Below are positions 21,526 to 33,961 of a stretch of DNA of 37,314 nt, one piece after another. Within the stretch, counting starts at the first letter, position 1. Every line of letters starts with the position of its first letter. The stretch lies in assembly GCA_016930515.1 (NCBI GenBank), contig JAFGGO010000122.1:1-37314 (forward strand), read 5' to 3'. Both the position numbers and the translations under genes were made by a program. The DNA is from Promethearchaeota archaeon. GTDB lineage: Archaea; Asgardarchaeota; Lokiarchaeia; Sigyniarchaeales; SOKP01. The notes under the pieces were generated by a model. That model worked only from the letters and a program-made list of their open reading frames with translations, had not been told where the DNA came from and made no database searches.

Positions 21526-22713
21526 TTGATATTGATTGGTACATTATTAATTGGATATAACGATAAAACCGGACCATTTATTGATATTCAAATCCCAAGC
21601 CTTCTTTTAGAAGTTGAGGATATTGACGTTTCGTATTTAAAGGAGTTATATCAAGAACAGAGAAATCTAATGGAAGGCCCTACATATATGATTAAACAAA
21701 TCAAGCCTGAATTGTTCGCGTGTTATTTTTATACTGGATATTCGGTGCTTCATTATGTGGGAAGACCTGGATACTGTGTTTTTGTATTCTATTCTGAGAA
21801 AAACGATGTTAACGAAAATCTCGAAGGCATGATCAGGAGGTTAGCACACGAACTACTACCTCAGAAAGAGACGCCTACTTTCTCTTCGCTCTTGCACGAT
21901 TATTACGAACTTATTAAAAAAGGGGAATTAGGGCAATACTGGGGAGAGATCGGAGAAAAACAGCCTCCCCGAGAAGAAACTATATTAATAACCGAACCCG
22001 AGAGCACGATTACGCCCGTTCTTAATGAAAATATGCAAATCCTTAAGGATGAACTTGAAGCAGAAAAAGCAAAGGTTGCTGAACTAAATCTTCAATTAGA
22101 AGATCTTAAAAAACAATACGAAAATCTAGAAATTAAACTCAAAGAAAAGACAGAACAATTGGGAGAAAAAGAAAAAAAAAGCGAGGAATTAATTGCGGAA
22201 ATAAAAATCTTAAAAGAAGTTGATAAAAATTCTGAACATCAATCTGAGACTATAAAAAATCAAGAACGAGAGATAGAGGATTTAAACTTAAAAATAAACG
22301 AATTAGGGCAGCAATTAAACGAGGTTGTGGAATTAAGAAAAATCGCTCAAAACTCCAAGCAACAAGAAGAAATAATTGAAAAAAAATCAAAAGAATTCTT
22401 AGATTTACAATCCCAATTTACCAATCTATCAGCAAAATTTGAAGAACTAACAAGTCAAAACGCGAACTTAGTAAAAAATTCTGAAATAATCCAAGAAGAA
22501 ATTGGATCTTTAAAAAATGATAACAACAATTTCTTAACAATCATTACGGATCTCAAGCTAGAGTTAAAAAAAAAGAAAGAAGAAATCGTATTTGAAAAGC
22601 GAGAAAAGGAGAAAATTGACGATGAAATCATAGATTTAAAAAAGGAAATTAAAGTTCTCCGGCGCGAGAGAGATCACTATAAGCAAATTGTGAAGGAAAA
22701 AAACTTATTGTGA
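21526..22713 (+). CDS. uDENN/longin-like N-terminal domain fused to a long coiled coil
   Basis: LLIGYNDKTGPFIDIQIP matches the hydrophobic-FD..xGP.i...P start of uDENN/longin domains. About 225 aa of heptad E/K/L/I repeat follow. Confidence 0.7.
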   Translation: MILIGTLLIGYNDKTGPFIDIQIPSLLLEVEDIDVSYLKELYQEQRNLMEGPTYMIKQIKPELFACYFYTGYSVLHYVGRPGYCVFVFYSEKNDVNENLEGMIRRLAHELLPQKETPTFSSLLHDYYELIKKGELGQYWGEIGEKQPPREETILITEPESTITPVLNENMQILKDELEAEKAKVAELNLQLEDLKKQYENLEIKLKEKTEQLGEKEKKSEELIAEIKILKEVDKNSEHQSETIKNQEREIEDLNLKINELGQQLNEVVELRKIAQNSKQQEEIIEKKSKEFLDLQSQFTNLSAKFEELTSQNANLVKNSEIIQEEIGSLKNDNNNFLTIITDLKLELKKKKEEIVFEKREKEKIDDEIIDLKKEIKVLRRERDHYKQIVKEKNLL

Positions 22714-22883: not shown

Positions 22884-23348
22884 GTGTCTAACATAAGTAT
22901 CGATACTAAAAGTTTCGATAATATCCTTTCCAAGATAATAAAGAGCGAAAGCGGAATAAAAAAGGTCATCTTGGTTGATAGAACGGGCTTAACGATCGCA
23001 AGCGTGAGCAAATTCTCCTATTTTCCCGCAGATGTGGACGGTATTGGTGCGATCGCTAGCGCCGTGTTTTGTGCTTCTGAAGAACAAGGAAAAAATCTCG
23101 AACTTGGCGATCTCGATATCGTCACCTCTGAATTTTCGGGGGGAAAGATTTTTGCCGCTAGTTGCGGACCAAAAGGTGTCCTTTGTTTGATTTCCGACCC
23201 AGATATCAATATAGGATTGATCAGGCTCATTTTAAAACGCTCGGGAGACGAACTTAGAGAAATACTTGACGAATTCTTGTCTGAGGTTCCAGAAACCTTG
23301 GATAGTGGTCTAGATCTATCGGATCTTGACGAACTTACGCCGGATTAG
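22884..23348 (+). CDS. Roadblock/LC7 (MglB-like) domain protein
   Basis: GIKKVILVDRTGLTIA, IGAIASAVF, LELGDLDIVTSEFSGGKIF, INIGLIRL. Acidic C-terminal tail. GTG start. Confidence 0.9.
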   Translation: MSNISIDTKSFDNILSKIIKSESGIKKVILVDRTGLTIASVSKFSYFPADVDGIGAIASAVFCASEEQGKNLELGDLDIVTSEFSGGKIFAASCGPKGVLCLISDPDINIGLIRLILKRSGDELREILDEFLSEVPETLDSGLDLSDLDELTPD

Positions 23349-24727: not shown

Positions 24728-27208
24728 TTAAAGAGATAACTGGGCGTCGCTTGCCCTGTATTCTCCCGAACCTTTTATTTCGTATAAAATCTCAAGCGTC
24801 TCGTTTTCTTCTAATGTTTCGATTTTCCATATGAGAGTATCCGTTCCAACTTGGTCAGTTATTTCCGTAGGTTCCAAGGAAAAATCCGAGTAAGTAAAAT
24901 TATCTGGAACTTTATCAAGTAGGACGAAATTATTCAAGGGCATGTCCCCCACATTTGTATATAACAATTGGATTTGATAGCGACCTTCGGTTCCAATCGG
25001 AATGATTTCCTTTCCAACCCGATATTTTCTCCTGATATGGATGACTTTAATAACGGGAACTTGATCCGCTTCGGGCACAAACTCGATTTCTTGGCCTTTA
25101 GGATAAGTATTAGCAGTATATAAGACATCAGTTTCAAAAATGGCGTCTCTTTGCGGTTTTACCATGTGTATCGGATATTCGAGCATGATTTTGGATTCAG
25201 GTTCGAACATGCCAGTAGGCGCGTCTTTTAAACCTTTAAGCCGTACTTGAATTATATCATCCTCAATCATAATAGCCCCTTCTGGAATTTCGATTTTATT
25301 ACCGTCCCAATAAAGGGTTAGCTCTTCGATCATGGGGGCTGTGAATTGGTCGTCGAATTGCTTTTGGAGAATAAAAACATCGTTTAAAGGAGCTGAACCG
25401 TTATTTTCAACAACTAAAATTGCTTTAATGTCACAATTTTTATAGGAGGGAATCAAAATCTCGTTTTCTTCTGCTTTAAGACCTGTTGCAAGTTCTTCTA
25501 TTTCATAGGAAACAGTACCAGTTATGCTAGCTAGGACTAATCCTACTTCTTCCAAGGAAATGGTACCAAGCATGTTTGTCTGTATTTCGGGAAACAATTT
25601 GAAGTCAACTTTCTTTTCGAAGGAGGGATAATCCTCGCTTTCGTATCGCCACGATTCAGAACGCCATTCCTCGCCCGACGAAAGCAAGAGTTTTGGTTCA
25701 CCTGAAAATTGAACGAAGTTAACATCAGGCTCTTTTCGATCGTGAACATTAATATCTATTAATTCTGTAACAAATTCCGAGGGATTTTCAAATACTAAAG
25801 TGCAATCCCAAACATCTGGTTCCTCGTCTTTTTCTATCATATCGATGTGAAATTTATTCCTTGAGAGCGCTTTGAATTCGTTTATTTCCAAACCACCTGT
25901 AAATGACGATCTTGCTTTATAAGAAAGACTCGTATCGCCGGTTTTTATTAATTCGTGTGTTTCTACTAAAATGTCTGCTGTAAATTTTAATATAATGGTT
26001 CCACCAGAATCCAACGATTCAATCGTCCACTCGATTTTTTCCCCTTCGATGGTTGCCTTTCCCTTTGGAGCATAAGTAATTTTTACATTTTCAAATTGTT
26101 TCGGTATTGTCTTATTTATAGTAAGCTCTTGGATTTGCTTTTCGAATAGATTGTGTATGGCAATTGCGAAGGTGACAGTATTGGTCTTGTCTTTTGAGAT
26201 TCCGAAGGATTCGAGACTGTATTGATCGCTTTCGATACCACCATCATACATCTCGTCTTCTGCTTCGCGAATGATACTTATGATTTCTTCTTTTGTTGCG
26301 TTTTCTGGCACATCTATAAGGTTATCATCGCAATATTCCAGCAATTGATCCATTGTCCACGATTCTAAATCTGTCTTTTCCTCGTCTTCTTCCATGTATT
26401 CGACATCTTCGTCTTCTTCATCTAAAACGGCTGCTCTTAACCTTTCTTCCACATTAGACTCAAAGTCGTATGAATTCTTTTCTTCGCTCGTGCCGTCTAT
26501 ATCATCGTTAAATGTTTCACCTGAGGGGATTATTTCGGATTCTTCTTGTAAATGTGATTGATCATCGTCTTCTCCTTCCAGTTCTTCTTCCAAAACATTT
26601 TCAATAATGTCTTCGGAACTTTTATCTTCGTATTGACTATCTTGTTTATTATTCTCTTTAGTTTCATCAGATAGAATTGATGAGTCCTCTTTCTTCTTTT
26701 CTTCGGATTCTTCTAGTATGGTTGCTTCTACATCGCTTTTTTTATCTTTAAAGGTTAATAAATGGGCTTCAATATCCTTAGGATTTAATATATCGTTCGC
26801 AGAAGGAGAAGTGTTAATATATTCCTTCACCAAGAGAAGATTCTTTTTTTCTCCTGTAATTTGAAAGTCTCGAGAAAATTTGTTATCGTTTTCTTCCGTG
26901 CCTAATTCCCTTATCTCGAAATGTGCCTCAAGGTCAGTACTTTCGATGTTTGAAAGATCAAATTCCACATTCCAGACTCTATCTACCTTACTCGGGTTTT
27001 CAACAACAAATGTTCCCTTAAAACCAATCGAATTAATACTCACATTGTGATCTTGTTGGATGTTTACCTGCTCTATCACATCAATTAAAACGGATTTTCC
27101 TGTTTTTTCCATTTGTTTCGCACCCACCTCACTGGATCGACTATCCATCGGTTGAAATGTGGTGGGCTCCGCAGATTTAGGTGTTTCAACTTTCTTTTTT
27201 CTAGCCAT
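24728..27208 (-). CDS. Large acidic multi-beta-sandwich protein (DUF11-like/mu-homology-like) with a disordered acidic insert containing an HeH/SAP-like motif
   Basis: Repeats such as NVGDMPLNNFVLLDKVP...LIWKIETLEENETLEILYEI and NNGSAPLNDVFI. DLESWTMDQLLEYCDDNLIDVPENATKEEIISII. No signal peptide or TM. ATG 27208 is preceded by GTGA; the track starts at 27217. Confidence 0.7.
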   Translation of the reverse strand: MARKKKVETPKSAEPTTFQPMDSRSSEVGAKQMEKTGKSVLIDVIEQVNIQQDHNVSINSIGFKGTFVVENPSKVDRVWNVEFDLSNIESTDLEAHFEIRELGTEENDNKFSRDFQITGEKKNLLLVKEYINTSPSANDILNPKDIEAHLLTFKDKKSDVEATILEESEEKKKEDSSILSDETKENNKQDSQYEDKSSEDIIENVLEEELEGEDDDQSHLQEESEIIPSGETFNDDIDGTSEEKNSYDFESNVEERLRAAVLDEEDEDVEYMEEDEEKTDLESWTMDQLLEYCDDNLIDVPENATKEEIISIIREAEDEMYDGGIESDQYSLESFGISKDKTNTVTFAIAIHNLFEKQIQELTINKTIPKQFENVKITYAPKGKATIEGEKIEWTIESLDSGGTIILKFTADILVETHELIKTGDTSLSYKARSSFTGGLEINEFKALSRNKFHIDMIEKDEEPDVWDCTLVFENPSEFVTELIDINVHDRKEPDVNFVQFSGEPKLLLSSGEEWRSESWRYESEDYPSFEKKVDFKLFPEIQTNMLGTISLEEVGLVLASITGTVSYEIEELATGLKAEENEILIPSYKNCDIKAILVVENNGSAPLNDVFILQKQFDDQFTAPMIEELTLYWDGNKIEIPEGAIMIEDDIIQVRLKGLKDAPTGMFEPESKIMLEYPIHMVKPQRDAIFETDVLYTANTYPKGQEIEFVPEADQVPVIKVIHIRRKYRVGKEIIPIGTEGRYQIQLLYTNVGDMPLNNFVLLDKVPDNFTYSDFSLEPTEITDQVGTDTLIWKIETLEENETLEILYEIKGSGEYRASDAQLSL

Positions 27209-27240
27209 GATATTCACTTAAATGATACTAATCCACTTGA

Positions 27241-29162: not shown

Positions 29163-29371
29163 ATTAACAATTTATTTATTTGAAATTAAGAATTTCTCTG
29201 ATATTATTTTTGAAAACTTACTTATTTTTTTTACTGAACTATTTTCTTGTCGTAAGAAACTCCAAAAATCTCTACTTCCTTTAAATATCCTTTATAAGCA
29301 ATCGTGAAGTTTAAATGAGAAACATTCTAATAATATACCTAATCGACACAAAATTTATATTTGTGGTGAAT

Positions 29372-31189
29372 ATGAGAGTGAATTTCAAACAAGTAAAATT
29401 AAAAAAAAAACATGGCGTGCTCTTGACGCTCGTTACGACCACTTTTTTAATAAATCTAGTTTTATTTGGTGCAATACCCCAAAATGCTACGAATCGCTTA
29501 CTAATTAAATCTTCCTTTGACGAATCGTATTCCGAAAATTGGATTGCAAACGGGGATTTTTCAACGAACCTTTCGTGGTATGGATTAATTCCAAGTAGTT
29601 ATAAAGACGATTTTTCGACTAAGATTTCAGGAGGAGGCGCTGATTTAACTGTTATCGGAGATCAAGGCACTTATAACTTCTATGATATTATTGATGATAG
29701 TTGGACTTTGGAAAGAAATCAAGATTGGGGACCACTTCCACCTAATAATACAGGTCTTACATTTTATGGAACAGATGATTATGGAGGGTATTTAAGTTAT
29801 CAATGGCTCGAGGGATCAAACCCAGATGGCCAACTTGGTCAGAATCCTAGCGTTCAATGGAGAAAAACCATACCAAGTACGGAAGTAAGCATGGAAGGTT
29901 ATGAAATCACATCCGCTTCTCTTCAAGTTACTTTTAATGCTACAGTTACAGCAGGTTCGCTTCCTTCGGGTTCTGGCTATGATAATGGAGGAATAGATGT
30001 TCTTGGAGATACCTATGGAGAAGCTGATTGGCAATTTTATGATGGCGATTATGTTCGATTTTATGCCAACCTTGCTGATGCAAATAATTCCATTAGTCCA
30101 CTCCCTCAAACTTACAACCAATCTAAATTCTTGGGCTTAGATACAAACGCTGATGGGAGTGATAAAGATTATTTCCCAGATAGCACTTTATCACCTATGG
30201 AAGGCAGGTTAATAGACGATTTAGATGAATTATTTCAATATAATGACACTAGCTTAACATTAATTGTAGGAATCAATATATTTTGTGAGGACAATGATGA
30301 TGGTACTGATCAAGATATTTGGGACGAATTGCGTATTAACACAGTTAATTTAACATTCACATACGAAAAAAAGATTGAAAAAGCATCTACAGCGTCGTTT
30401 AGGCAAGATGGAGATTTGCTTAGCAATACTGTAGTTGGAAATTCGAGCTTCAAATCTGTAGACAATGTAAACTTGAACTTTGATTATTCCATCGATAAAC
30501 CCTGGACAAGCGAATCCACGCACTCTAAAATATTAGTTCAATTAAATGGTTTGACTTGCGAAGAGGACGACGACGATTATATCACCTTGATTGATATTCC
30601 TAGCACGGGTACGATATACTCTTACAATCGTAGCCTTTCTTCTTATGGATATATAAATGAAATCACTGATTATGTAAATATATCGATTCTCTTGCTCATG
30701 GATGACGATTTCAGGCTCACGGAAAACATTACCATCACGATTGACAATGTCGTTCTTGATATCGATTATACATTGGCATTCCTCGATCCACCACCGCCAG
30801 AAACACCAGAACCAGAACCTCCAGGACCTTTTGATTACGAGGATTATCTCTGGTTAGTCTACCTACTCGCAATCACGTCTGGAGTAGTGATTGCTGGACT
30901 TGGCACATATAGCATTCTTTATGTGACTTACTTGAAATATCCGCCTTTGGTGCGCAAAATTAGAGCGCTTAGGAGGAAAGTAAGAAAGAACAAGTCTCTC
31001 ACGAAACCAATTCTCGTGAAAAAGCGCGCTACTTTAGAAAATGTTGCATTAAAAGAAAAAATGCAGGTATTAAACATTGATACAAAAGCGATTGCTGCAA
31101 GTAAAGCTACGACGAGTGCTGGAGCAGTTCAAAAAATAGCTCCTGGAGATGTATCAGATGTAAGTAAAAAACCTACAGGAGGGAAGTGA
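29372..31189 (+). CDS. Membrane-anchored cell-surface (glyco)protein with C-terminal TM and basic cytoplasmic tail
   Basis: Likely start ATG 29372 (GGTGA upstream; the track starts at 29315). N-terminal basic + hydrophobic signal/anchor. D/S/T/N-rich beta ectodomain with several NxS/T sequons. PPPPETPEPEPPGP linker, TM helix, then KYPPLVRKIRALRRKVRK. Confidence 0.8.
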   Translation: MRVNFKQVKLKKKHGVLLTLVTTTFLINLVLFGAIPQNATNRLLIKSSFDESYSENWIANGDFSTNLSWYGLIPSSYKDDFSTKISGGGADLTVIGDQGTYNFYDIIDDSWTLERNQDWGPLPPNNTGLTFYGTDDYGGYLSYQWLEGSNPDGQLGQNPSVQWRKTIPSTEVSMEGYEITSASLQVTFNATVTAGSLPSGSGYDNGGIDVLGDTYGEADWQFYDGDYVRFYANLADANNSISPLPQTYNQSKFLGLDTNADGSDKDYFPDSTLSPMEGRLIDDLDELFQYNDTSLTLIVGINIFCEDNDDGTDQDIWDELRINTVNLTFTYEKKIEKASTASFRQDGDLLSNTVVGNSSFKSVDNVNLNFDYSIDKPWTSESTHSKILVQLNGLTCEEDDDDYITLIDIPSTGTIYSYNRSLSSYGYINEITDYVNISILLLMDDDFRLTENITITIDNVVLDIDYTLAFLDPPPPETPEPEPPGPFDYEDYLWLVYLLAITSGVVIAGLGTYSILYVTYLKYPPLVRKIRALRRKVRKNKSLTKPILVKKRATLENVALKEKMQVLNIDTKAIAASKATTSAGAVQKIAPGDVSDVSKKPTGGK

Positions 31190-32331
31190 ATAAAATGCCA
31201 TTAGGATATATAATATGCAGGTGGTCGCAAAACCAAGGATTAATTATTCCTGCCAGTTACCCCGAAAAAATGACGGTCGACTTGGACGATATGATGCGAG
31301 TATTTTACGCCCACGTCACGGGAGCAGGGGCAGAAGGTAATGTGGTTGTTCGATTGGAACGCTCGCAATGTAACGTGGCAAGCTATTTTACTGGAATGGA
31401 TTCCGCAGATCCCATAATGATTAACTTGATGCTGTCCTACGGGGAAGACCCCGAAATGTTTGGCGAGGCGTATCTCAAGGAGATTAACGAGGAGATCCTC
31501 AAGTATACCCCAGAGATAAGCGCAACTAACATGGCACAATCGTACGAAGTGATCAAGCGCTTGAAAGAATACTTGAAATTGGCTTTATTTCAACTAGAGC
31601 GCTTGAAGAGCCTGACAAAAGAGCAAAAGCTAGCACAAATATACAGTAGCGAAAAAGGGAGGGCAATTCTTGAGTTTTTACAAGAACGAGCCCGCCCTCG
31701 AAAAGAACTACTTGCACTACTAGAAGACAAATTAGGGAGGATCATTGCCAACATCGATTACACTTTAGAGCCTTTCGTAAAAACTTCTCTCGTTCACCAG
31801 GATTGGATAGCAGGGCTTGCAGATGTATTCCTTTTTCTCAAATCAGATGTTATTATTTCTAGGATACCTCCTGTAAAATTGGTAGATCAAGCCAAAAGAG
31901 GAATTCCAAATCCCTTCTTGGGAAAGCAATATCTCGACGCGCTAAAAGTTTTTTACGCACAATACAAGCCAACAGTCGAGGACAATCTTATCGTTGCGAA
32001 TAATTTGATGAATCCAGACAAGTACGATTACATCGTTTTATTCCGAGAAAAACCCTACCCTCTAAATAAAATACCCAAGGGTCCTGGTGAAAGCTTTAAA
32101 TTCATCAAAAACATGTTAAAATCCATGGAAGAGGATAAGGTCATAACGATCGTGAAAGATAAGAAAGGTACCGAGTGGGTCTTCTTATTGTCAGACCTCT
32201 GGACAAACACTTTCTATCCCGAGTATATGGTTGATCAAATCAGGAATGACCGACGACAAGGCCTGCTGAAAAAGGAAGTTGCATTAATGCACTTGAAATT
32301 ACTCGAAAAAGAATATCCAAAAATAAAATAA
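31186..32331 (+). CDS. uDENN/longin-like domain followed by two winged-helix-like domains
   Basis: PLGYIICRWSQNQGLIIPASYP (uDENN-like start). wHTH-like segments KGRAILEFLQERARPRKEL...LEPFVKTSLV and IKNMLKSMEEDKVITIVKDKKGTEWVFL. Overlaps the upstream stop (GTGA) with GGAGG in front. Confidence 0.7.
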   Translation: MNKMPLGYIICRWSQNQGLIIPASYPEKMTVDLDDMMRVFYAHVTGAGAEGNVVVRLERSQCNVASYFTGMDSADPIMINLMLSYGEDPEMFGEAYLKEINEEILKYTPEISATNMAQSYEVIKRLKEYLKLALFQLERLKSLTKEQKLAQIYSSEKGRAILEFLQERARPRKELLALLEDKLGRIIANIDYTLEPFVKTSLVHQDWIAGLADVFLFLKSDVIISRIPPVKLVDQAKRGIPNPFLGKQYLDALKVFYAQYKPTVEDNLIVANNLMNPDKYDYIVLFREKPYPLNKIPKGPGESFKFIKNMLKSMEEDKVITIVKDKKGTEWVFLLSDLWTNTFYPEYMVDQIRNDRRQGLLKKEVALMHLKLLEKEYPKIK

Positions 32332-32345
32332 TCAGGTAATGAATC

Positions 32346-33806
32346 ATGTCAAAAGTAAAAACGACCCAAGTATTAGAGCTCATCGGCCTGGCAGAAGACG
32401 AGATAGATACTTATTTTAACTTGACCGGAAGAGGTCCCGTGATGATAGGAGAAATAGCGCTCATGTCAAAAGTCGATCGCGCCAGGGCAACTCAAATCGC
32501 CCAAACATTATTGCAAAAAGGGCTCGTGCGAGAAATTGCTGGTGCCAATCCTTATTACGAGGCATTGCCGCCATATGTTGCTTTAATGAATCAGATTAGG
32601 CAATTTAAAGACACCATTATTAATCTCCAACACACGACACCTACAAACATTCAATATAAATTCAAGGGTATTGAACAACAATCCGAAAAACTCGAAAAAT
32701 TCAACGATTATAGGAATTACATCAGAAAAGTTCGAGACGAACTCCCTCGCCAATTAAAAACTCACTTCGATTCGTTTAGCGCCGAAATCGAGCAAGTGAA
32801 ACAATTTCGGGAGATTAAAAAATTTATAACAAACTTGCGAGAGATCGTTCCTTCGGAAATTCTTCAAGAATTGCAAAAAATGGAAAGTCGCTTGGCGAAA
32901 ATAAAAAAAGAGATTTCAGAACGATTCGAAACCCAATTTCGGGTTCCAGCAATGAAAACAATGGCAGAGAACACCGTTGATGCGGTTATCACGAAGGAAT
33001 TTTCCGAAATGTCCGCTTACTTTAGGGACAAGTTCGTTAACACGACTCAAGGAATGTTAGACCAAGTCATCAGTCAATTAGCAAATATATCGGATGCCAC
33101 ATTTGATGTCGGGTCGGATCTAGATTCAACCTTCGTAAATATCGAGTCTGGACTAAAGACGGCGTTAAATGACTTGGATTCGAGAATATCCTCTGTACAT
33201 TCCGATGTGATGCAAGGGATAGAGGACCTAAAAAATCTCTTCCAAAAAGAAGTATTCGAGACGATTCAAGACGATATTGTCGTAAATATAATCAACCAAT
33301 TGGAAATGTCTGAGGCCACAATGCGGGAATTTTGGGAAAAATCCAAGCTTACATCACTATTAAGCTTCAAGGATGTATGGTTCGTCAGAAGTCAGGAAGG
33401 CATGATGGCGCAAATAAACGATTCTATTTCTCGAGTTAAAATGAGGATACAAATCATTTGTCCTACAATAGAACAAATCGATTTAGTTGCGCTCTCGCAG
33501 GTTAAGAACCATGTGAATGTCCGGATTTGTACTAGCTTCGACATTAATAATCTCACGCACCAACAAATGATGAATCAAATACGCCAACACTCCAATTTTA
33601 CGCTTAGGTTTTATCCAAGAGAAAATATCTGGTCCGTGAACAAGGATTTTGAAGAAGTTGTCGTATGTGTTGTCTCAAAAAGCGAATTTGGCGTGCAAAT
33701 AGCAGGAATGGGTTCCGTTTTGGAAGAACATGTGAAACTTTTTGCCACGATGTTAGAAGACGTTTGGATCCAATCCAAGAGACTCGACATGCTCGGAATA
33801 AAATAA
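32346..33806 (+). CDS. TrmB-family wHTH regulator with long central helical/coiled-coil insert and C-terminal TrmB effector-like (PLD-like fold) domain
   Basis: IGLAEDEIDTYFNL...GEIALMSKVDRARATQIAQTLLQKGLV...YEALPP is a TrmB HTH. DVWFVRSQEGMMAQINDSISRVKMRIQIICP begins the C-terminal domain. Confidence 0.8.
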   Translation: MSKVKTTQVLELIGLAEDEIDTYFNLTGRGPVMIGEIALMSKVDRARATQIAQTLLQKGLVREIAGANPYYEALPPYVALMNQIRQFKDTIINLQHTTPTNIQYKFKGIEQQSEKLEKFNDYRNYIRKVRDELPRQLKTHFDSFSAEIEQVKQFREIKKFITNLREIVPSEILQELQKMESRLAKIKKEISERFETQFRVPAMKTMAENTVDAVITKEFSEMSAYFRDKFVNTTQGMLDQVISQLANISDATFDVGSDLDSTFVNIESGLKTALNDLDSRISSVHSDVMQGIEDLKNLFQKEVFETIQDDIVVNIINQLEMSEATMREFWEKSKLTSLLSFKDVWFVRSQEGMMAQINDSISRVKMRIQIICPTIEQIDLVALSQVKNHVNVRICTSFDINNLTHQQMMNQIRQHSNFTLRFYPRENIWSVNKDFEEVVVCVVSKSEFGVQIAGMGSVLEEHVKLFATMLEDVWIQSKRLDMLGIK

Positions 33807-33961
33807 AAAATATTTATCAATTTTTTTTATCATTTCTATTTTTAATTATATGATTTGAAAATCTCGTTTTAAAATATTTTAATATTCGAATATAAAAAAG
33901 AAAATACATTTAAAGTTAAAAATAAGTAATGTATTGTATATTGTACAGAAATTTGAACTAA

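Follow-up and report, generated by a model that had tools for sequence, protein, structure and literature searches.

Organization of the operon

The operon described here lies in a stretch of 37,314 nucleotides (hereafter the window; contig JAFGGO010000122.1, assembly GCA_016930515.1), part of a metagenome-assembled genome of an Asgard archaeon of the Lokiarchaeia that amounts to 4.0 Mb and is 94% complete. Three open reading frames (ORFs), taken from the ORF list and their translations, run in the same direction on the + strand at 29315/29372–31189, 31186/31195–32331 and 32346–33806. They encode a surface protein, a longin protein with two winged helices (WH1 and WH2) and a protein with a TrmB-type helix–turn–helix (HTH) motif, referred to as genes 1, 2 and 3.

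29372–31189, + strand: gene 1, single-pass type-I surface protein of 605 residues from ATG 29372 (alternative ATG 29315), from the ORF and its translation
31195–32331, + strand: gene 2, cytoplasmic protein consisting of longin, WH1 and WH2, 378 residues from ATG 31195 (381 from GTG 31186), from the AlphaFold2 model
32346–33806, + strand: gene 3, TrmB-family-like protein of 486 residues, from the ORF and Pfam

An initial annotation, made from the letters of this DNA, had described three tightly packed + strand genes with a T-rich tract at their end, a gap of 14 bp between genes 2 and 3 and a GTGA overlap between genes 1 and 2. The packing, the tract and the 14-nt gap are all borne out by the ORFs and the sequence. 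The letters of the overlap are also present at 31186–31189, where a GTG start at 31186 would overlap the TGA of gene 1 (31187–31189). However, the N-terminus of every gene 2 homologue reads MPxG in the family consensus and the database copy of the protein (P0004) has 378 residues, so that the start is most likely ATG 31195, 5 nt beyond gene 1, and not the GTG. A GGAGGG sequence (31178–31183) lies 12 nt upstream of this ATG. Genes 1 and 2 are tightly coupled whichever start is used.

The surface protein and its cytoplasmic tail

The protein encoded by gene 1 is anchored by a single helix close to its C-terminus, beyond which lies a short basic tail. In the following list its residues are counted from ATG 29315.

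29411–29476, + strand: N-terminal signal peptide or signal anchor, residues 33–54, a basic n-region followed by a hydrophobic stretch, from hydropathy, with the same layout in the orthologues
29477–30781, + strand: acidic ectodomain of net charge −54, with Asp, Ser and Thr in abundance and 12 N-x-S/T sequons, from composition
30782–30829, + strand: Pro-rich stalk LDPPPPETPEPEPPGP, residues 490–505, from the sequence
30848–30931, + strand: single C-terminal transmembrane (TM) helix, residues 512–539, from hydropathy
30932–31186, + strand: basic cytoplasmic tail of 85 residues, net charge +17, from composition
30932–31027, + strand: conserved juxtamembrane motif LKYPPLVRKIRALRRKVRK...KPILVKKR within the tail, from tail alignment A3

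Hydropathy and composition confirm the large ectodomain, Pro-rich stalk, single C-terminal TM helix and basic tail that had been read from the sequence, and the start at ATG 29372 proposed with them agrees with the N-termini of the orthologues. The ectodomains of the orthologues are just 28–40% identical, the TM helix and tail being the best conserved parts. The first ~45 residues of the tail are strongly conserved, with the orthologue consensus FKYPPxVRKIRKLRKK..K.KK.KPI.V.KREEI, and in alignment A3 residues P7, R11, R14, K28 and R35 are invariant. The same tail motif is common to paralogous and distant Asgard surface proteins. Gene 1 gave no sequence match in Pfam, NCBIfam or the PDB, and an Atlas feature search with the ectodomain yielded leads below 0.9 only, among them viral MAM-like clusters.

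Predicted structure of the gene 2 protein

The gene 2 protein is predicted to consist of an N-terminal longin domain followed by two winged helices and a C-terminal helix.

31195–31617, + strand: longin domain, residues 4–144, from the AlphaFold2 model, VIA-align and Foldseek
31627–31869, + strand: WH1, residues 148–228, with near-invariant D221, R226 and P228 at its end, from alignment and model
31963–32229, + strand: WH2, residues 260–348, from the model
32272–32325, + strand: C-terminal helix, residues 363–380, in which L370 and L373 are near-invariant, predicted to form the core of the groove that takes up the tail, from alignment and complex model

The fold was modelled from an alignment (A1) of 97 sequences, comprising orthologues, paralogues and modules cut from fused forms, and the AlphaFold2 model is of high confidence (pLDDT 94.5, pTM 0.89). 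A longin domain was taken to be an antiparallel sheet of five strands that has a single helix packed on one side and a pair of helices on the opposite side (β2-α-β3-α2). This arrangement is formed in the model by strands 7–14, 18–25, 51–57, 62–68 and 77–83 with helices 33–46, 94–105 and 116–142, and it aligns to solved longin domains with Z scores of 11.1–11.8 over 128–143 residues. The top VIA-align match is the longin domain of a Lokiarchaeota Roadblock-Longin protein (8yqg_B; Z 11.8, root mean squared deviation 3.7, 140 residues aligned), followed by an NPRL chain of GATOR1 (8fw5_B, Z 11.4), FNIP2 (6ulg_N, Z 11.3) and Lst4 (4zy8, Z 11.1), while the longins of SNARE, TRAPP and AP/COPI proteins lie lower (Z 7.5–10). 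The top Foldseek matches fall in the same longin families with weak E-values.

The initial annotation had seen a uDENN/longin-like pattern at the start of gene 2 and a tandem of winged helices behind it. The longin fold and both winged helices are present in the model, and it is the DENN part that does not stand: a DENN protein was considered and rejected, as two winged helices follow the longin domain and neither a DENN core nor a dDENN is found in the model. DENND1A aligns within residues 1–188 (115 aligned), that is, through its longin part. The structural matches of WH1 are to RosR (Z 8.0) and the cullin WH-B (Z 7.7) and those of WH2 to ArsR/SmtB-type regulators (Z 7.5–8.5); bacterial tandem HTH_5/HTH_20 proteins match residues 140–342. 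Winged-helix matches in the range Z 7.5–8.5 are generic. No ESCRT-II-like tandem winged-helix chain stood among the matches listed, so that a likeness to ESCRT-II may still exist.

In an ESM Atlas shape search the first eukaryotic entries are NPR2-family clusters, with 180–183 residues aligned across 1–381 (TM-score 0.35–0.36), and the GATOR1 chains of the PDB align well over the longin domain only. Pfam and NCBIfam returned nothing usable, with only a chance WH_eIF2D entry and no NPR2 (PF06218) at E ≤ 1. As modelled, the gene 2 product therefore resembles an NPRL2/FLCN-type longin protein in fold and perhaps in layout, without being a demonstrable member of those families and without their catalytic hallmark.

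The predicted complex of tail and gene 2 protein

The initial annotation had looked to complex prediction for an interface between the tail and its neighbours. When gene 2 (alignment A1) was modelled with residues 537–624 of gene 1 (alignment A3), an interface was predicted with an ipSAE of 0.74, against 0.00 for the best of 3 controls. The score mark is attained by 58 of 80 solved complexes and 2 of 110 mismatched pairs, a comparison that is only rough since our own alignments were used. The runs have at least 78% of contacts in common and the partner pLDDT is at least 64. We know of no similar solved complex, and recall from training is therefore unlikely.

Within the tail it is the conserved motif that makes the contacts (residues 7–52 of the modelled piece). 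The gene 2 side consists of residue 166 and residues 221–234, 250–262, 339–357 and 363–377, so that the predicted site is a groove behind the two wings together with the C-terminal helix, and not the longin domain. Five of the 10 near-invariant positions of the family (D221, P228, P345, L370 and L373) lie in this predicted interface (hypergeometric p = 0.001).

Conservation of the gene 1–gene 2 pair across the Asgard archaea

Gene 2 homologues are present in 212 of 301 sampled Asgard genomes, mostly in several copies each. In families f2, f5, f9, f15 and f23 a homologue adjoins a surface protein of 600–2400 residues with a signal sequence and one TM helix near the C-terminus, next to which lies a related motif such as RIPxFVKK or RIPYQIKQIN. 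In nine cluster representatives the two proteins are fused, so that a giant ectodomain, TM helix, basic motif, linker of ~90 residues and gene 2 module follow one another in a single chain. A strict search of the window's own genome for the tail motif behind a TM helix finds only 3 large surface proteins, with a separate gene 2 paralogue adjoining each of them, and a further surface protein on contig C122 with a variant tail motif is likewise paired with a gene 2 paralogue. With these observations and the predicted interface a tail–adaptor pair is well supported, a dedicated pair being the best-supported reading.

Gene 3 was found in Lokiarchaeia-type families only. As genes 1 and 2 occur together throughout the Asgard archaea, often in fused form, this pair would be the old core of the system and gene 3 a later addition.

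Some further features of the family were observed. In families f5 and f15 a conserved gene of 139–161 codons without a Pfam match lies between the gene 2 homologue and the giant surface protein (L038/L040, 8520–8966; L048, 8405–8890). Long C-terminal extensions are carried by the gene 2-family members P0143, P0151, P0153, P0155, P0157, P0158 and P0174 and also by P0211 and P0257; a number of these extensions are charged or rich in Pro and have helical segments of TPR-like appearance, and two of ~650 residues appear, by eye, to contain a SIR2-like region (GAGIS...) and TPR repeats.

Synteny and a paralogous set in the Lokiarchaeia

Synteny was assessed in 29 orthologous loci from the same and the sister family. 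In 27 of them gene 3 comes after gene 2; of the other two, one is truncated by the contig end and one has no gene 3. Every locus with upstream sequence has a gene 1-like gene, or the tail of one, ahead of gene 2. The order of genes 1, 2 and 3, for which the initial annotation had proposed this comparison, is thereby kept across many Lokiarchaeial genera. Ahead of genes 2 and 3 several genomes carry, on longer contigs, 3–4 gene 1 paralogues in tandem that differ in ectodomain and share one tail. Relatives of gene 3 occur in the two closest families, in 66 of 68 genomes of one and 6 of 7 of the other.

A second, paralogous set is found on contig C122 of the same genome. It comprises a surface protein of 1271 residues and a divergently transcribed gene 2' (417 residues), together with a roadblock-Ras GTPase (559 residues, 28270–29949 of C122) and gene 3' (793 residues). 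In 14 further genomes gene 3' lies directly downstream of gene 2' or within a few kb, and 1–3 divergent gene 1' genes, whose tail reads LKYPxPVRKVRKYRKTL, stand beside gene 2' wherever the locus is not cut by a contig end. Two conserved, paralogous three-part sets are hard to explain without a shared function. That the three genes are a conserved module is supported.

In one genus (L010, on G008:C87, with L012 and L013) genes 1, 2 and 3 share a single reading frame and are parted only by single TAA codons, with the junctions ...EEVN-stop-MPRGF... and ...AYKK-stop...; read-through of these stops would yield fusions like the natural ones. The window differs in that genes 1 and 2 are in different frames.

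Gene 3, a TrmB-like protein with a helical rod

The third protein has the domain order of a TrmB-family regulator, with a long helical insertion between the two ends.

32355–32573, + strand: TrmB-type winged HTH, residues 4–76, from PF01978 and a TrmBL2 fold match
32574–33350, + strand: helical rod of four long helices, residues 77–335 (~260 residues), from a low-confidence model
33363–33791, + strand: C-terminal α/β domain, residues 340–482, probably a divergent Regulator_TrmB/PLD-like domain, from hhalign and Atlas leads

The TrmB HTH named in the initial annotation is recovered both in sequence, by PF01978 (residues 11–76, E 2.3e-9, 37.4 bits against a cut-off of 25.6), and in structure, the best fold match of the N-terminus being TrmBL2 (5bpd_A; Z 10.9, 113 aligned). 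Of the fold matches of the gene 3 model only this N-terminal one was used; in the model the C-terminal α/β domain spans residues 350–482. A sequence search of the PDB likewise returned the TrmB N-terminus only. The rod gave sub-threshold Pfam matches to ApoLp-III and Baculo_PEP_C, and its structural matches (a dynamin pair, a phasin and the cohesin elbow) were treated as generic. The C-terminal domain has no direct PF11495 (Regulator_TrmB) match in Pfam. It aligns to the C-terminal domain of a 290-residue protein of the same genome (hhalign probability 97.8%, E 1.2e-12), which itself scores 22.2 bits on PF11495, exactly at the cut-off, and Atlas feature leads of 0.86–0.87, to be taken as leads only, point to PF11495 clusters. 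By sequence comparison the domain is probably homologous to a TrmB-C-like domain.

Most gene 3 orthologues have ~650 residues, with an additional Pro-rich linker and a helical domain of ~85 residues that are absent from gene 3 of the window and its closest relatives. The ~85-residue domain also ends gene 3' on C122, and it occurs in a stand-alone ORF of 199 codons (C98:14523–15119, + strand) that adjoins a 303-residue protein (C98:13468–14376, − strand), an apparent roadblock-GTPase fusion with an NKQD motif.

The winged helices of genes 2 and 3 raise the question of membrane-tethered DNA binding. Here the gene 2 winged helices or the gene 3 HTH would sit on DNA while held by the tail, either as a ToxR-like one-component regulator of inverted topology or as a chromosome anchor, the latter being the second suggestion of the initial annotation. 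In the fused forms a membrane protein indeed carries two winged helices, gene 2 is basic in its C-terminal half (isoelectric point 9.4), and the N-terminus of gene 3 has its best fold match in a chromatin protein, TrmBL2. However, it is the tail groove of gene 2 that is conserved and not its recognition helices, the HTH region of gene 3 has a net charge of −1 and is thus not basic, and the repeated association with GTPases described below would be left unexplained. Such tethering is highly improbable as the function of the operon.

Association with small GTPases

Members of the gene 2 family repeatedly occur together with GTPase genes. In families f9, f10, f14 and f21 they lie directly beside genes for GTPases of 280–289 residues, in operons, one such GTPase gene being that at L085, 8104–8961. 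These proteins consist of an N-terminal extension of ~125 residues and an Arf/Roc/Ras GTPase domain (E 1e-19 to 1e-22); the extension of one of them gives a weak match to the clathrin-adaptor small chain, which is longin-like. In four genomes another f9 subfamily lies 1.5–3 kb from GTPases of 530–605 residues. The 559-residue GTPase between gene 2' and gene 3' has a roadblock-like segment at its start and is 55% identical over its full length to the GTPase at the same position in another genus. In the window's own genome 6 of 9 gene 2-family genes lie less than 8.5 kb from one of 84 small GTPase genes, against ~23–26% for random positions, a comparison that serves as a lead only, as the threshold was set post hoc and the cases are not independent; the weight of the argument lies with the operons. 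The pairing of longins with roadblock- or longin-bearing GTPases is an established pattern for GATOR1, folliculin and Ragulator (PMC3747258). Owing to this repeated linkage a GTPase step is at least as likely as a direct relay from adaptor to transcription factor.

Roadblock genes were also observed near the operon. A 395-residue protein ~6 kb upstream of it (21526–22713, + strand) is accompanied by a 154-residue Roadblock/LC7 (MAPKK1_Int-like) protein (22884–23348, + strand), and in the complete genome of another genus (L093) a Robl_LC7 gene and an SDR gene stand just upstream of the orthologous operon.

GTPase operons also fit another reading, in which the tail would be a sorting signal and gene 2 a cargo adaptor that recognizes it, in the way that the longin-containing σ and μ subunits of AP complexes deal with the tails of their cargo. 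With the help of a GTPase, and with gene 3 as a rod-like scaffold, the adaptor would bring surface proteins to particular membrane sites, for example protrusions, or keep them there, without passing information to DNA. Many ectodomains share one tail, with 1–4 tandem surface genes per adaptor, and the longin domain of gene 2 is also similar to the small-subunit longins of AP-3, AP-2, AP-5 and COPI (Z 7.5–9.2). The apolipoprotein-like, phasin-like and dynamin-like helical matches of the gene 3 rod, and its HTH that is not basic, are likewise in keeping with a scaffold. Against this, the one-to-one pairing of adaptors and surface proteins in the window's own genome fits dedicated partners better than a general sorting machine, a cargo covalently fused to its own adaptor would be odd for an adaptor that is recycled, and gene 3 retains a TrmB HTH above the Pfam cut-off. 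Internal membranes are, moreover, rare in cultured Asgard archaea, as cited in PMC12290439. A role confined to sorting or positioning is considered unlikely.

Transcription signals and neighbouring genes

The sequence on either side of the operon contains candidate archaeal transcription signals.

29163–29371, + strand: A/T-rich intergenic region 5' of gene 1, putative promoter region read from the sequence
29280–29287 and 29291–29297, + strand: TATA-like TTTAAATA and TTTATAA, within the region upstream of gene 1
33821–33843, + strand: T-rich tract 3' of gene 3, with T8 at 33821–33828 and T5 at 33839–33843, candidate archaeal terminator

A scan for sigma-70 promoters and intrinsic terminators gave nothing specific, the models being bacterial and inapplicable to archaea. 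A search for inverted repeats 5' of gene 1 found A/T-rich chance pairs only and no convincing operator-like repeat. Two metatranscriptomes of the source study contained no transcripts of the three genes, which speaks neither for nor against expression of the operon. The flanking genes, an SDR upstream and minus-strand genes downstream, are unrelated, so that the three genes form a unit of their own. A further protein of the window (24728–27217, − strand, 829 residues) has one DUF11 repeat match (E 9.5e-11).

The missing operator-like repeat also bears on another account of the operon, in which gene 3, possibly along with the gene 2 winged helices, would act as a conventional DNA-binding regulator of the adjoining surface gene and make no contact with the tail of its product. 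Regulators commonly adjoin their targets, gene 3 has both a TrmB HTH and a TrmBL2-like N-terminal fold, and the winged helices of gene 2 are similar to ArsR, RosR and PadR regulators (Z 7.5–8.5) as well as to the tandem HTH_5/HTH_20 proteins of bacteria. Ordinary regulation of this kind would, however, account neither for gene 2 modules fused behind the TM helix and tail of surface proteins, nor for a tail motif that co-varies with gene 2 across the phylum, nor for a predicted tail interface on family-invariant residues, and there are operons of gene 2 homologues and GTPases with no surface gene to regulate. This account is therefore quite improbable.

Discussion

The arrangement, conservation and predicted contacts of the three genes suggest that they form a single device linking the cell surface with the cytoplasm, to which we assign a probability of roughly 0.6. 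In the proposed mechanism the variable ectodomain of gene 1 would face outwards and the conserved basic juxtamembrane tail (KYPPxVRKIRxLRKK...KPIxVxKR) would act as a docking tag. The gene 2 adaptor would clamp this tail as an amphipathic helix in a groove to which the end of WH1, WH2 and the C-terminal helix all contribute, while its longin domain, which is of the FLCN/FNIP/NPRL kind, would stay accessible as a platform for partners. The partner would most likely be a roadblock- or longin-bearing small GTPase encoded elsewhere, gene 3, or both. Gene 3 may be a Lokiarchaeia-specific partner or output, a TrmB-family protein stretched by a rod, whose location or activity would be set by the complex of tail and adaptor. 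The parts of this scheme that we infer are the involvement of a GTPase, the direction in which a signal would travel and DNA binding as a possible output. The receptor–adaptor–effector module of the initial annotation stands as a conserved module with a predicted interface between gene 2 and the tail, while its kinase-free output from membrane to DNA, through gene 3, is hypothetical.

Extended to the phylum, the scheme would be a pathway in which the tails of surface proteins recruit an NPRL2/FLCN-like longin protein that switches roadblock- or longin-bearing Arf/Rag-like GTPases, with a further relay to a TrmB-type transcription factor in the Lokiarchaeia. We put this forward tentatively and regard it as doubtful in its full form.

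Several points weigh against the surface-to-cytoplasm device proposed here. The interface between tail and gene 2 is a model prediction; over the interface as a whole, conservation is barely above that of the rest (0.48 against 0.38, p = 0.05), and the tail-binding half of gene 2 is basic (net +7), which makes it an odd partner for a tail counted here at +13, although the predicted contacts are mostly hydrophobic. No GTPase gene lies within the window. A GAP (GTPase-activating protein) mechanism of the GATOR1/FLCN type is not supported, as no longin column of the 97-sequence alignment exceeds 40% Arg, judged by columns and not by structural equivalence to R78 of NPRL2; R38, R56 and R139 are conserved within the orthologous group of gene 2 only. 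The whole-protein model of gene 3 is poor (pLDDT 59.8, pTM 0.29), and a search with this gene 3 as query found no relative in 76 of 76 f9 genomes that carry gene 2 homologues, so that gene 3 would be dispensable for the core function. The sole RNA cover of the operon is one contig of 260 nt from an RNA library, identical to 29525–29784, which speaks neither for nor against its expression.

The closest known likeness of gene 2 is to NPRL2/NPRL3 (Npr2/Npr3 of GATOR1/SEACIT) and FLCN–FNIP (Lst7–Lst4), which share with it an N-terminal longin of the same structural subtype (Z 11.1–11.4), a similar size, an association with roadblock- or longin-bearing GTPases and, perhaps, small helical or winged-helix modules behind the longin. 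Unlike NPRL2/NPRL3, gene 2 has no PF06218 sequence match and superposes poorly as a whole protein (TM-score 0.35), and in contrast to both NPRL2/NPRL3 and FLCN its family lacks a family-wide Arg finger. We know of no DEPDC5-like partner for gene 2, and the predicted clamping of a surface-protein tail by its C-terminal half is not known for these eukaryotic proteins. The Asgard 'NPRL2-like longin' proteins and the Lokiarchaeota Roadblock-Longin protein (8yqg) are of the same phylum and longin subtype. In the accessible part of their text, Liu et al. (bioRxiv 10.1101/2020.10.19.343400) report the former, with fusions to two-component domains and a longin + NPRL2-C family, and that part describes no surface-protein tail, giant surface-protein fusions or TrmB-like partner.

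TrmB and TrmBL2 share with gene 3 the PF01978 HTH, the extended N-terminal fold of TrmBL2 and the order of HTH, helix and C-terminal α/β domain, the last probably PF11495-like in gene 3. They differ in having a single dimerization helix where gene 3 has its ~260-residue rod, and gene 3 further departs from them in an HTH that is not basic, in the lack of a direct PF11495 match and in its genetic company, which always includes a longin adaptor and surface proteins that bear the tail. Most of its orthologues also add the Pro-rich linker and ~85-residue helical domain that gene 3 of the window lacks.

Two other comparisons serve as working likenesses only. Recognition of cargo tails by AP and COPI similarly matches a longin-containing cytoplasmic protein to a short conserved motif in a single-pass tail, and Arf-type GTPases are likewise found in the wider context of the gene 2 family. 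However, the contact of gene 2 is predicted through the winged-helix and C-terminal helix part and not through a longin or μ-homology domain, no coat components are linked to the three genes, and adaptor and 'cargo' are sometimes one polypeptide. Membrane proteins can also sequester transcription factors, as PtsG does with Mlc in E. coli, and ToxR-like regulators are membrane-bound. These systems share with the proposed device the kinase-free hold of a DNA-binding protein at the membrane, without homology to the three genes. They differ in that a longin adaptor is here placed between the membrane protein and a regulator whose DNA binding is putative, and in that the TM protein and the winged-helix protein of the window are separate genes, unlike in ToxR, although fused gene 2 homologues exist. 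An OmpR-type winged HTH such as that of ToxR was not detected by Pfam in the three genes.

A search of the accessible literature found no published description of the combination of surface protein, longin and TrmB-like protein, in agreement with the initial annotation, which knew of none, nor of an Asgard longin linked to TrmB or to a cytoplasmic tail. The operon may thus be regarded as a conserved, hitherto undescribed link from the Asgard cell surface to cytoplasmic machinery of GTPase type and transcription type, the GTPase step and the DNA output being the conjectural parts.

The longin, roadblock and small-GTPase genes of Asgard archaea are numerous and eukaryote-like, and to our knowledge nobody knows what they do. 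The operon context of Asgard signature proteins has been reported to be mostly uninformative (PMC10933270). For one large Asgard longin family the present analysis identifies a conserved and well-defined partner in the cytoplasmic tails of surface proteins, along with a predicted interface, natural fusions and recurrent operons with GTPases, and it turns the question of function of such signature proteins into one for simple binding, localization and GTPase assays. If the device is real, it would bear on the origin, before eukaryotes, of membrane-associated longin–GTPase signalling and of cargo-tail recognition. Should a pathway from tail through longin to GTPase exist, it may represent a prokaryotic forerunner either of the way in which adaptors recognize cargo or of the platforms for membrane signalling built on GATOR and folliculin, and it would provide the first concrete cellular job for many Asgard longin and GTPase genes.

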